NCBI GenBank assembly: GCA_013239625.1
Contig: MU053652.1
Location: 3,040,001-3,104,000 of the forward strand
Reading direction: 5' to 3'
Length of the DNA stretch: 64,000 bases
Source: Lama guanicoe
Taxonomy: Eukaryota
Position numbers and translations under genes: made by a program. Shown one piece after another: positions 6,776 to 64,000 of the stretch (positions within the stretch are counted from its first letter, which is position 1; every line of letters starts with the position of its first letter). The notes beneath the pieces are model-generated. The model had not been told where the DNA came from. It was given only the letters and a program-made list of their open reading frames with translations, and made no database searches.

Positions 6776-7227
6776 CACCTGCACCCCAATGTTCATAGCA
6801 GCACTATTTACAATAGCCAAAACATGGAAACAGCCTAAATGTCCATCAACAGGTGACTGGATAAAGAAGATGTGGTATATTTATACAATGGAATACTACT
6901 CAGCCATAAAAACCGACAACATAATGCCATTTGCAGCAACATGGATGCTCCTAGAGAATGTCATTCTAAGTGAAGTAAGCCAGAAAGAGAAAGAAAAATA
7001 CCATATGAGANNNNNNNNNNNNNNNNNNNNNNNNNNNNNNNNNNNNNNAAACAAGATTACACTGTATAGCACAGGGAAATATACACAAAATGTTATGATA
7101 AATCACAGAGAAAAAAATGTGACAATGAGTGTGTATATGTCCATGAATGACTGAAAAATTGTGCTGAACACTGGAATTTGACACAACATTGTAAAATGAT
7201 TATGAATCAATAAAAAAAGTAAAAAAA
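6776..7227 (+). mobile_element. Young 5'-truncated L1 (ORF2 C-terminus and 3'UTR), contains a 38-N gap
   Basis: Intact ORF2 end [41 protein letters not shown], poly(A), and TSD aatacatgag at 6766-6775 and 7228-7237. Confidence 0.92.
7011..7048. other. Assembly gap (38 N)
   Basis: N run. Confidence 1.
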
Positions 7228-12240: not shown

Positions 12241-13328
12241 ACTGAAGAATTACAAATAAACTGCACATAATTCAATCCTATATAAGTAAAGCTGTACACA
12301 TCAAAAACCACGCTATGACTATTTTTTAGAAATCAACCTATTTGCTTTTCTGTGTGTTTTTGATTTTTTAAAAATCAAAAGAGGAAACAAATGAAAGCAG
12401 TGAAGAAATGTAAACATATATACACATAAATCCGATTATATAAAAAGAAAAACCTCCACAGTCAAAAAACACCATATGAACAATTCTATATAATTCGCTG
12501 CATTTTCTTATTTTTAATTTTTGTCAAAAAAAAGGTGCTGCCTAATTGGAAACGTGACTTTCAATTATTAAAATTGTGGGAGTCCATTTTAATGTGTTTA
12601 TCTCGCTGCTAGTCTATAATTTATATTTCAGCGTGGAAATTTGTTTGTATGCCTGTGACAGGTTAATGCAGTTTAAACATGCATTTTTCTTTCGTTGGTT
12701 GAATAGTTAAATCGTTACTCAAAGGATTTTAAGTTTCAATTTCAACCATCAGAGGATTCTTTGCTTTTTCAAGGTTAAAAATGTTTCTGGTTCAAAATGC
12801 TATTAATTAATGGCTCCGCAGTGGATCTATTTAGGGAATTGGTACCGACCCCGGGTTAACAGCGGAACTGTTAAATGAGAAAACTTTTTTTGATGAAGAC
12901 TTGGGGATATTTTAAATTTGATCTTAGAGCGGTAGACAGAAGTGAAATGTAATTCCAGCCCGATTAACTAACGATCGTAATTATGAATCGAAAGACATGT
13001 CAGGTATAAGCATTTTTTTTCCCTTAAAAAAAAAAGTTTCTCGGACTCCGCCGGACACCCAGCTGGCGGAGGACCAGCGGGCGAGGGGGGGGCGAAGCCG
13101 GCAGGCTGCCCAGAAGTTACGATCGGGGAGTTTTCGCTTTATTAAAATTACCTGGCTCACCAGCAGAGGCAAGAACGCGAAGACAAGATAATTTCTTAGG
13201 CTGTTAAAAATGACTTAGCCCGGTGGGCCGCGCGTTCCGAGGGGGTGTCCTGAGGGCCGGGGCGGGTCCCGCCGCCCCCGCGGGCTCCGGTGCGTCAGGG
13301 GCGCGTCAGGCGGGGCGGGCTCCGCGCG

Positions 13329-13349
13329 GGCGGCGGCGGCGGCGGCGGC
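13329..13349 (+). repeat. (GGC)7 trinucleotide repeat in the KLF14 5' region
   Basis: Read directly from the sequence. Confidence 0.9.
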
Positions 13350-13436
13350 GGGTGGCGGGAGGACGCTCCCGAGAACTCTCTCTCCCGCGGCCGGCCGCGC
13401 TCGGACGGCGCGCGCCGGCGGCCCGGCGGTGCCAGC

Positions 13437-14420
13437 ATGTCGGCTGCCGTGGCGTGCCTGGACTACTTCGCCGCCGAGTGCTTGGTGTCCATGTCCGCGG
13501 GTGCCGTGGTTCACCGCCGCCTGCCGGACCCCGAGGGCGCGGGCGGAGCGGCAAGCTCGGAGGTGGGTGCGGCGCCGCCGGAGTCCGCTCTGCCGGGTCC
13601 GGGGCCACCGGGGCCCGCGTCGGTCCCCCCGTTCCCCCAGGTCCCCGCCCCCAGCCCCGGCGCGGGCGGCGCCGCGCCCCACCTGCTGGCTGCAAGCGTC
13701 TTGGCTGACTTGCGCGGCGGCTCTGGGGAGGGCTTCGGGGAGTACTCGGGGGAAGCTCTGCGCGCCTCGTCCAGCTCCTCCGACCCGACCCCGTGCTCCG
13801 GCCCAACCCTGTGCTCCAAGCCGGCTCCGGCCTCCAGCGCCGCAGAGGTCTCGGGACCCGCGCACTCTTTCTGCGCGCTCGCGGTCCCCAGCGCGCCTGC
13901 AGTCCCGGGAGCGCCTGCCCACCCCTGCGCGGCCTCCTGCGGGGCCCCTGGAGCGGGCCCCGCCCCTGCCACGGGTCCAGTACCCCGTCGGAGGCCAGTC
14001 ACACCTGCTGCCAAGCGCCACCGCTGCCCCTTCCCTGGCTGCAACAAGGCCTATTACAAGTCGTCGCATCTGAAGTCCCACCAGCGCACCCACACGGGTG
14101 AGCGCCCTTTCTCCTGCGACTGGCTCGACTGCGACAAGAAGTTCACGCGCTCCGACGAGCTGGCCCGCCACTACAGGACGCACACGGGCGAGAAGCGCTT
14201 CTCCTGCCCCCTCTGCCCCAAGCAGTTCTCCCGGAGCGACCACCTGACCAAGCACGCCCGCCGCCACCCAGCCTATCATCCCGACATGATCGAGTACCGG
14301 GGGCGCCGTCGCAACCCCCGCGTCGACTCGCAACCTGCCAGCCTGGCGGACAGCTCCGGTTCCGTCCCCGGGCAGGTGCCCAGCTTCACCACCTGCTTGT
14401 CTGACAGTCATTGCTGTTAG
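13437..14420 (+). CDS. KLF14: Kruppel-like factor 14, intronless, 327 aa
   Basis: ATG at 13437 (GCCAGCATGT) gives [20 protein letters not shown], containing the Sin3-interaction motif of the KLF9/13/14/16 group. An Ala/Pro/Gly-rich region follows, then three C2H2 fingers (CPFPGC..HQRTH, CDWLDC..HYRTH, CPLC..HARRH) and the tail [13 protein letters not shown]...FTTCL. No introns; TSGA13 lies downstream as in human. The ORF-track start at 13290 is a GTG. Confidence 0.97.
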
Positions 14421-30820: not shown

Positions 30821-31226
30821 TTTTTTTCCTTCTATTTTTTTTTTATCGTACTACAGTCAGTTTACAATGTTGTGTCAATTTCTGGTGTACAGGATAATAT
30901 TTCAGTCATACATATGCATACATATATTTGTTTTCATATTCTTTTTCATTACAGGTTGCTACAAGATATTGACTATAGTTCCCTGTGCTATACAGATGAA
31001 ATTTGTTTTTTTATCTATCTTATTTCTAGTAGTTAGTATCTGCAAATCTCAAGCTCCTTATTCATCCCTTCCCAGCCCCTTTTCCTCCTGGTAACTGTAA
31101 GTTTGTTTCCTATGTCTGTGAGTCTGTTTCTGTTTCGTAAATAAGTTCATTTGTGTCCTTTTTTTTTTCCTTTTTAAGATTCTACATATGGGTGATATCA
31201 TATGGTATTTTTCTTTCTCTTTCTGG
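30821..31226 (-). mobile_element. Young L1 3' end with TSD
   Basis: T tail and L1 3'UTR (atagttccctgtgctatacag). TSD tcacatat(t)aaga at 30809-30820 and 31227-31239. Confidence 0.88.
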
Positions 31227-51779: not shown

Positions 51780-51802
51780 ATGGGCCGAAAGAGATATGCT
51801 AA
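51780..51802 (+). CDS. TSGA13: TSGA13 first coding exon, coding part MGRKRYA(K); exon probably starts at 51628
   Basis: GCAATGG start resembles the recalled human MSQKRQTK. Ends AA|gtgtgt in phase 2, matching the next exon. Acceptor ttcccatccag ends at 51627. Confidence 0.75.
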
Positions 51803-54205: not shown

Positions 54206-54284
54206 GTTTCAGTATGGCAAATCAAGGACGTCAAGAACTAGCCCAGTTGAACTTGAGAAAGAAATGACTGTTGACAGTGATGAG
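54206..54284 (+). CDS. TSGA13: TSGA13 coding exon 2 (FQYGKSRTSRTSPVELEKEMTVDSDE)
   Basis: Acceptor ttttttcag|, donor |gtaaga, 79 nt (1+78). Similar to the recalled human FQNGKSKTS..KE. Confidence 0.88.
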
Positions 54285-56093: not shown

Positions 56094-56312
<219 letters not shown>

Positions 56313-57035: not shown

Positions 57036-57329
<294 letters not shown>

Positions 57330-61812: not shown

Positions 61813-62037
<225 letters not shown>

Positions 62038-62220
62038 TGAAGTCCTGGCTCTTTCCTACCTTTTCCTTATTCATGTCACTATCTCTTTTCAATACAATTT
62101 AACAAACACTTTTTGGGTATAGGGGATATGGACAACCGTATAATAATAAGACAGCTTTCCTACATGACCCCTGATCTCATTTCCACCTTAACAAAAGAAA
62201 AACAGCAATGCAAAACTAAG

Positions 62221-62304
62221 GTTTTTCACGAGAATGATTTTCAAGGTGAAGAGAAGGATTCAAAGGTCTATGCTTTAAGGGAAACAACAAAAACTTTCCC
62301 TCAG
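62221..62304 (+). pseudogene. Diverged tandem duplicate (pseudoexon) of TSGA13 coding exon 6
   Basis: Hand alignment gives 62/85 identities with 62593-62677. Translates NDFQGEEKDSKVYALRETTKTFPQ versus [24 protein letters not shown]. Both copies are preceded by TAAG. Confidence 0.8.
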
Positions 62305-62563
62305 TGCGTGTTAAGGGCTGTAATACAGGAACAATGTGCCATGTATGAGATTTTATTTGAAACTAGTAATAGGAGCAGCCTGCACCTGGTGCGGAGAGGA
62401 GAGAGATTCTGGAGTTCCTTCATAGATTTACAACGCTAGGTTCTAGAAGCACCCCTTCCGCTGGACAGTATAACCACTCGGTACCAATGAACACACTCTA
62501 ATCCTTTCTGCTCCCCCAGAATCTGAGAATCCACTGACTGGTTCCATTAACCCCCTACCCTAG

Positions 62564-62848
<285 letters not shown>

Positions 62849-62935
62849 TAGCATGGAAGCTGAGAACTGATAGAGGCCCACATAGTGCTCGGTTTTGGAT
62901 CCTATTTAAATCCTCAAATTTCAAGAAAGCTCTAG

Positions 62936-63213
62936 CATGGTGTTCCCCTAACTACATTACCTACCACTTTATGAGATTTGGTCAATGTGTTATATGCTCT
63001 ATTATTTACTTAATGTTTTTCTTTAAAACGATGTTTTGGGTACTTGTCCTAACTAATATTATATCACTGACATTATGGGTTTGATACACTAATTACATTT
63101 TTTTCCTCTGACATCCATTTAATCAAATTCATAAAAATTAGAATATAAAATGTTTATCTATATATCACCGAAAACTACCCAGTGGCATGCCTATCACACT
63201 TTGAGGAAAGCTG
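62936..63213. mobile_element. hAT-type MITE remnant
   Basis: Flanked by ctctag / ttctag; terminal cacactttgaggaaagctg. Confidence 0.45.
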
Positions 63214-64000
63214 TTCTAGAAAGATCAAAGGATAAGCTGCAAGTCTCAGAGACCCAAGAGTCTCTTTGGGGTTGAGGCAGGACATGGGGTGGGAGGGGTT
63301 TGGGATAAGGTTGTGCAGAAGAGGGGGCAACGAGAATGCTCCTCACAAATGATCATTCATTTGGCAACATTTATGGGGCACCTACTAAGTGTTAGATATT
63401 TATCAAGCACCAATAATAGCACTTTCAATATGTGAGATCGTTGGATGGGCCAGGTCATGAAGGGCCTTATATATTCGCATAAATAAGGGCTTAGGTTTTA
63501 TCCAGCAGGCGGTTGGGACTCACTGAAGGATTTCAGAGCACTGCACACACATTTGTGTACTAGAAGTACAATCGATGGGTCCCCAGACTTCACCAGCCTG
63601 TGGCTTCAAGATAACGTTCATTTCTTCTACGGGGTTTCTCTCCTCAAGCAATTTCTGAAACTCCCTAAGGTATACTTACCTGTTCCACAAGGCCATCCGA
63701 GTGACTACCAGTCAGCCTCAGTCCAAACAGTCATGGTTCCAGATGTATGAGGTCACATTGTACCGTCCCTTACCTGGCTTCTTCAAGCTTCTCTGCTCCT
63801 CCTGTACCTATTTGCTGCCCCACCTGATGCCCACCTACTGCCTCTCTTAACTCCCCATATACAGCTAAAACCAAGCTGTGGTATTAAACAACACTTCATA
63901 GCTGTGGAGAAAAGTTAAAGGAGGGCAGAGAGTTATTTATCTTGCTTTCAAAGGGGATACTCTTAGGTTCAGCCTCAAACCCGCCTCGGTTCCTTCCTAC

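Follow-up and report, generated by a model that had tools for sequence, protein, structure and literature searches.

The DNA analysed here, which we call the window, is a stretch of 64,000 nucleotides of Lama guanicoe (assembly GCA_013239625.1, contig MU053652.1, forward strand, positions 3,040,001 to 3,104,000). It contains the gene TSGA13, whose coding exons lie at 51780-51802, 54206-54284, 56094-56165, 57078-57284, 61903-62036 and 62593-62720, with exon 7 beyond the window. The translation of exon 6 in the window equals that of the alpaca TSGA13 protein P0001, and for one TSGA13 exon the protein identity to alpaca TSGA13 is 97%. Immediately after exon 4, the sequence GTAATG is found at 57285-57290, where several gene models of orthologues have VM in addition, which suggests a tandem donor with its two sites 6 nt apart. 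Our main subject is intron 5, which is 556 nt long and holds a second, decayed version of exon 6. The features discussed below are as follows (a slash marks the exon boundary):

61903..62036, plus strand: coding exon 5, phase 0 to 2, donor AG/GTGAAG; tblastn 96% to alpaca P0001, Pfam TSGA13 at E 1e-16
62041..62439, plus strand: 132-codon stop-to-stop frame that holds the copy's homologous frame, in the same frame as exon 5
62185..62222, no strand assigned: candidate micro-inversion, recognised post hoc, with a 26-nt purine-rich loop (62191-62216) between the arms ACCTTA (62185-62190) and TAAGGT (62217-62222)
62217..62304, plus strand: well-kept core of the copy (TAAG and the first 84 nt), 1 nt short with respect to exon 6; pair-HMM 56 bits, best distance 0.3-0.4
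62305..62342, plus strand: 3' portion of the copy, decayed, with the weak donor remnant CAT/GTATGA (GT at 62343) at its end
62343..62588, plus strand: putative tail of the first tandem unit, a decayed counterpart of the opening ~250 nt of intron 6, from the pair-HMM flank match
62593..62720, plus strand: working coding exon 6, phase 2 to 1, donor G/GTAAGC; protein equal to alpaca P0001, Pfam TSGA13 at E 2e-20
62721..62970, plus strand: start of intron 6 and putative tail of the second tandem unit, from the flank match; read-through peptides of bear, bat and squirrel match it

The duplicate copy of exon 6 is real. When 62221-62304 is aligned with 62593-62677 of exon 6, 62 of 85 columns are identical with one gap, at an offset of 372 nt, and TAAG/G precedes both, all of which reproduces what the first-pass annotation of this DNA had claimed. 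A comparison with shuffled controls, which it had named as able to refute the duplication, upholds it, in that the local alignment scores 166, the shuffled sequences average 99 with 136 as their highest score, and none of 2000 shuffles comes up to the value of the copy. Within the window, blastn recovers the match at 74% over 89 nt (E 1e-12) and finds no other comparable match to exon 6, and the copy's frame matches Pfam TSGA13 at E 8e-4 with 19 bits, the family cut-off being 27. The copy had been given the extent 62221..62350; its strong similarity holds to 62304, but the 3' third (62305-62342) shows no significant likeness to exon 6 alone (p about 0.4). If the GT at 62343 is taken as the putative donor, the copy measures 122 nt compared to 128 for exon 6. 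The best gapped alignment contains five single-base gaps, namely one net loss and two compensating pairs. Four synonymous codon pairs had been listed, and these are present in the ungapped register, but the pair TTC/TTT is lost in the best gapped alignment, because 62238-62245 is explained there by a +1/-1 indel pair. The NDF and SKVYALR motifs of the copy do match human TSGA13 (P0081), as had been stated, and also the mammalian majority. Since the copy is 27% diverged, it is unlikely to be an assembly artefact.

With respect to its origin, the homology appears to continue, with weak support, beyond the exon. The segment 62345-62570 aligns weakly to 62723-62990 (pair-HMM 6-7 bits), with p values of 0.003-0.012 on four null sets of 600 each (real segments from either side, dinucleotide shuffles and block shuffles), and in a register scan the expected starts, 62740 and 62720, were the top two of 54. 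None of three sub-segments of the flank was significant alone (p 0.05-0.18), and plain local alignment did not detect the match to intron 6. According to a first simulation the flanks should align easily, yet they did not, and it is heavier indels that reconcile this result with the later detection by pair-HMM. The upstream flank of the copy cannot be matched to the exon-5 terminus (p 0.4-0.7), and, as it stands, it is likewise unmatched to the end of intron 5. Because the DNA downstream of the copy matches the start of intron 6, we favor a genomic tandem duplication of ~372 nt over a retrocopy. We envisage that about 370-400 nt, from the acceptor through exon 6 and ~250 nt into intron 6, would have been duplicated in tandem, such that the downstream unit would have become today's exon 6, and the upstream unit would have decayed, ignored by the spliceosome and removed together with intron 5.

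It is rather unlikely that just the ~90-nt core was copied, as a short templated insertion, or that an older duplicate was re-homogenised by gene conversion, with the likeness of the flank and the inverted piece described below both being due to chance. Such an event would account for the distance of 0.3-0.4 in the core as compared to 0.9-1.2 in the flank (pair-HMM), for the sharp end of similarity at 62304, and for the missing flank match in simple local alignment. However, the flank homology passes the four nulls as well as the register scan. Furthermore, a single age with a neutral copy is compatible with these distances, with a best combined p of about 0.06 at 0.08 indels per substitution and of 0.2 at 0.15 (in the final three rows of this joint test at the 0.15 setting, the core term alone is 0.024 or less), such that no special event is needed, and the outcome would be a dead copy all the same.

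The first-pass annotation had called the duplication old, and this finds indirect support in the majority residues N5 and V16 of the copy together with gene models of lynx and mangabey. N5 and V16, which the copy has kept, represent the mammalian majority, and the proteins of all four camelid species carry K and A at these positions; K5 is common to pig, peccary, hippo, whales, sheep and deer, but N is also found in Bos and Bubalus, which counts against N5 as a mark of age. Erroneous gene predictions in lynx and mangabey include peptides with counterparts in the DNA of intron 5, at 62483-62527 and over its final ~30 nt, and the tail of the first unit would therefore predate the split between camel and cat, and probably also that between camel and primate. 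In the koala there is a single exon-6 unit, which reads SKLHALK at the position of the placental SKVYALR of the copy. Counted from the placental root, the camelid branch measures about 0.2, and the simulated per-branch divergence for a neutral copy is 0.27 (0.15-0.44). From these sequence comparisons, the duplication is probably older than the camel-cat split and probably took place in an early placental ancestor. Candidates for orthologous mammalian intron DNA with an exon-6 alignment (1 of 149 metagenome, 0 of 22 viral and 1 of 73 prokaryote hits) were rejected, both loci being GC-rich chance matches with no DNA similarity.

The copy has since lost much of what is conserved in exon 6. It leaves the mammalian majority at 10 of 25 residues, as compared to 2 of 25 for the working camelid exon 6, and six of its residues are seen in none of 255-256 orthologues, among them those in columns K8, G11, Y13 and Q22, which are 97-99.6% invariant. 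Between copy and exon 6, dN is 0.27 and dS 0.87 over 25 codons, giving a dN/dS of 0.31 (Fisher p 0.028). The calculation of dN/dS had been suggested as a check in the first-pass annotation. Having computed it, we cannot take the synonymous changes as a sign of selection on the copy, because simulation of a copy that was neutral from birth reproduces the excess (median pN/pS 0.49-0.54; observed 0.43), and a ratio of 0.31 as proof of selection on the copy is thus ruled out, since the simulation obtains it from selection on the working exon alone. The same neutral simulation predicts 10.9 changes in the copy and 2.1 in the working exon, and under lasting purifying selection on the copy this asymmetry arises with P 0.012 or less. 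An intermediate history with an average omega of 0.5 also fits the data in simulation. An early coding phase is possible rather than proven, because a single age with a neutral copy stays compatible (p 0.06-0.2), and we consider the chances about even that the copy was spliced and coding for some time before its death.

The reading frame of the copy is disturbed by a frameshift, a net loss of 1 nt within its first 25 nt. As had been pointed out before, the copy is therefore 1 nt short at its 5' end, such that splicing from exon 5 (phase 2) would run into TAA at 62276, and splicing from exon 4 (phase 0) would leave the frame open; in fact, exon 4, 62221-62342 and exon 6 can be joined in frame, with the GT at 62343 as the putative donor. 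A 45-nt cassette, 62221-62265, from the AG of the copy to AAG/GTCTAT, could be inserted between exons 5 and 6 without a frameshift and would then be read in a non-homologous frame; it occurs in no surveyed protein. The homologous frame had been reported as open from 62113 to 62439; the end is correct, but the frame starts at 62041. In the window outside the GC island, frames of this length hold only 1.5% of codons, which speaks against a dead copy, although a simulated neutral copy remains stop-free across the 25-codon core in 44-47% of runs. Protein searches for relatives of this frame yielded none among 11 candidates at E up to 1, and for the translation of 62221-62436 none at E 0.001 among 1.84 billion representatives; in Rfam there was one chance match (E 0.15). 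We further observed that the frame of exon 5 is cut off from the 132-codon frame by one TGA (62038-62040), and that the latter contains an ATG at 62128, which is probably chance. The database contains fused models of TSGA13 and COPG2 (P0008, P0067 and P0074, from yak, mole-rat and dog), which reflect either read-through or annotation error, and a score of 42 between the intron frame and the COPG2 part of P0008 was discarded as being at chance level.

We surveyed 265 TSGA13 proteins, which are gene models that miss rare isoforms and those subject to NMD; the set covers 15 members of two large clusters, and 24 weak matches lie outside it. Within this scope, the copy is included in none of the 265. 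Exon 6 is present in 256 of them, a second exon-6-like unit in none, and where both exons are present, exon 5 is joined directly to exon 6 in 248 of 251 proteins, the other three also being without the copy. Alpaca has a sole second isoform in its cluster, X2 (P0079), which ends in DDNLL past exon 6 and differs only there.

The splice signals, which we graded by pyrimidine count and by matches to a donor consensus, point in the same direction. The polypyrimidine tract is indeed missing, as had been noted, with 6 of 17 pyrimidines at the acceptor of the copy as compared to 11-15 of 17 at four real acceptors, which corresponds to the 28th percentile of all AGs in the window versus the 86th-99th. 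A rival AG lies 13 nt upstream. The AG/G at the acceptor is retained, and the donor-like sequences CAT/GTATGA and AAG/GTGAAG are present. For a terminal exon, neither AATAAA nor ATTAAA occurs before 63883. As a separate observation, the AG at 62123 is preceded by an extended pyrimidine-rich tract (62046-62112), with a branch-like site at -24, and splicing to it from exon 4 or exon 5 would miss the copy's frame. Among sequencing runs, 11 of RNA or presumed RNA contain 0.06-0.22 of the sampled words of 61880-63800, where about 0.11 is expected from exons 5 and 6 alone, which speaks neither for nor against splicing of the copy, and five further runs from two studies, one of which may be the source of this DNA, contain 0.93-0.97.

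Taken together, the copy is real and old, and we regard it as most likely a pseudogenic exon, a dead relic. The description of a decayed exon, one of those offered in the first-pass annotation, is thus supported by the lost invariant residues, the frameshift and stop with respect to exon 5, and the absence from all 265 proteins. Its other suggestions, namely a mutually exclusive, alternative-terminal or poison exon, find no support in the acceptor (6/17), the TAA at 62276, the missing polyadenylation signals and the protein survey.

There is a small chance that the copy is still spliced at low level, either as a poison exon or as a cassette that replaces exon 5 (exon 4-copy-exon 6, in frame). 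The retained AG/G, the donor-like sites, the length difference of 6 nt to exon 6 and the open frames would allow for this, and the geometry would suit a poison exon, because the stop at 62276 lies 64 nt before the putative donor at 62343 and would create an NMD target. Also, testis is a tissue with permissive splicing. The missing pyrimidine tract and the competing AG 13 nt upstream argue against such use, as do the absence from all 265 proteins and the fact that alpaca's second isoform differs after exon 6. Moreover, chance alone provides any exon with some in-frame combination. In the accessible text of a study of pseudogenic exons, 22 of 284 human genes that carry them are reported to have them in alternative transcripts (PMC2718932), which gives such use a precedent.

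A possible reason for the missing pyrimidine tract lies directly upstream of the copy, where a list of 26 inverted repeats drew our attention to the pair ACCTTA/TAAGGT. These arms form a perfect 6-nt inverted pair, the right one being the copy's own TAAG/GT. In the repeat scan, 62185-62195 is the exact reverse complement of 62584-62594 at the acceptor of exon 6, and on the minus strand 62185-62200 agrees with this acceptor in 15 of 16 columns, a level that 17 of 2273 real segments attain. When the loop is flipped in silico, the pyrimidines rise from 6/17 to 14/17 and the matches to the DNA preceding exon 6 from 15/36 to 20/36 in a gapless register. With the flip bounded by arms, 8 of 3000 real segments do equally well; without the requirement for arms the effect is not significant (57 of 150 do equally well), nor is it in an ungapped version of the test (p 0.58). 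An inversion of 26 nt between the arms would have turned the pyrimidine tract into purines and thereby disabled the acceptor of the copy, and we hold it to be an evenly balanced question whether this happened. More doubtful is the fuller scenario, to which the better preservation of acceptor and core relative to the intron flank would correspond, in which early placental mammals used the copy as an alternative exon until a single 26-nt micro-inversion switched it off, with the arm complementary to the live acceptor as a by-product.

Micro-inversions between human and chimp are described, in the accessible part of the report, as 17-33 nt long with inverted repeats on their flanks (PMC8755829), and the candidate agrees with this description in size and arms. 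As compared to such cases (PMC8755829, PMC5453318, as far as their accessible text goes), the likeness thus consists in a 26-nt segment between perfect 6-nt inverted arms, whereas here the event is deduced from a paralogue rather than from an orthologous genome, and the match is old and partial. A narrow search of the open-access literature for microinversion of a polypyrimidine tract returned no related report, only unrelated work on Drosophila. The putative inversion is the one uncommon trait of the copy. Should other species bear it out, nature would have provided a clean example of an acceptor disabled by a strand flip, and if the reading as an alternative exon were true, the locus would hold a datable record of exon death by this route.

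It is improbable that the inverted piece (62185-62200) has been retained for a role in the RNA, where it would serve as an arm pairing with the acceptor of exon 6 and tune the inclusion of that exon. The two could form a 15-bp duplex of -15.8 kcal/mol, and the fit to the exon-6 acceptor is 63 as opposed to 29-44 for three other acceptors. However, the pairing probability in the folded intron is 0.04-0.14, the complementarity arises automatically once a duplicated acceptor is inverted, and among the 253 gene models with exon 5, exon 6 is missing outright in one and replaced in one. Finally, the insertion of a reverse-transcribed fragment of TSGA13 mRNA into the gene's own intron is very improbable, because the weak extension of the tblastn match into exon 5 residues (36% over 58 aa) that would suggest it is outweighed by an upstream flank without DNA match to the exon-5 end, a junction that matches the intron's TAAG and not the TTAG of exon 5, and a downstream flank that matches intron 6, so that no exon-exon junction is seen (compared at the exon 5 side, exon 7 being outside the window).

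Viewed as a dead relic, the copy has close parallels among known classes of duplicated exons. In the accessible text on pseudogenic exons (Morais and Harrison 2009, PMC2718932), these are copies of a host-gene exon that carry a frameshift or stop and lie outside annotated coding transcripts, and each of these properties is found here. They occur in 0.4-1.0% of genes in human, cow, mouse and rat, and their Ka/Ks peaks at 0.25-0.75, which is attributed there to selection on the parent or to a former coding phase of the copy. Like them, the TSGA13 copy lies beside its parent, has a frameshift and a premature stop, and falls within this peak with its Ka/Ks of 0.31; it differs in that it stems from a camelid, outside the genomes considered there, and in that the intron flank and a possible cause of splice loss are visible.

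Intronic matches to exons are common and routinely detected by alignment of exons to their own introns, as was done here, according to the accessible text of two studies of unannotated intronic tandem exon duplicates (Ivanov and Pervouchine 2022, PMC9013439; Exonize, PMC12343006). The expressed cases in these studies have support from split reads and conservation, which sets them apart from the copy described here. For mutually exclusive exons (Hatje et al. 2017, PMC5740500; Martinez Gomez et al., PMC8373072, PMC9741552, in their accessible parts), the likeness is that two homologous exons of comparable length (122 and 128 nt) lie side by side. In the terms of PMC5740500, similarity is present and the length difference is a multiple of 3, given the putative donor, but the same frame without a stop is not (TAA at 62276). 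The copy also differs from this class in the drastic changes at invariant residues and in the lack of an acceptor tract. TSGA13 was not found in the searchable supplements of exon-duplication studies, including those on mutually exclusive exons, and the supplementary tables of PMC9013439 may list a human counterpart. We found no description of this TSGA13 duplicate; among 36 papers that mention the gene, none does so more than 3 times or has it in its title or abstract. Each mammalian genome harbours hundreds of dead exon copies, and this one leaves the picture of TSGA13 as it was; it is of value as a small, dateable fossil.

Elsewhere in the window, three further features are of note. An intronless C2H2 zinc-finger frame on the plus strand (13254-14420) lies within a GC island and is probably KLF14, given its synteny with TSGA13. 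An assembly gap of 38 bases (7011-7048) falls inside an L1-like frame. A dispersed family of ~120-nt repeats, 71-86% alike, is found at 30836, 34707, 36219, 38736 and 60454, and probably represents the 3' end of a retroposon.
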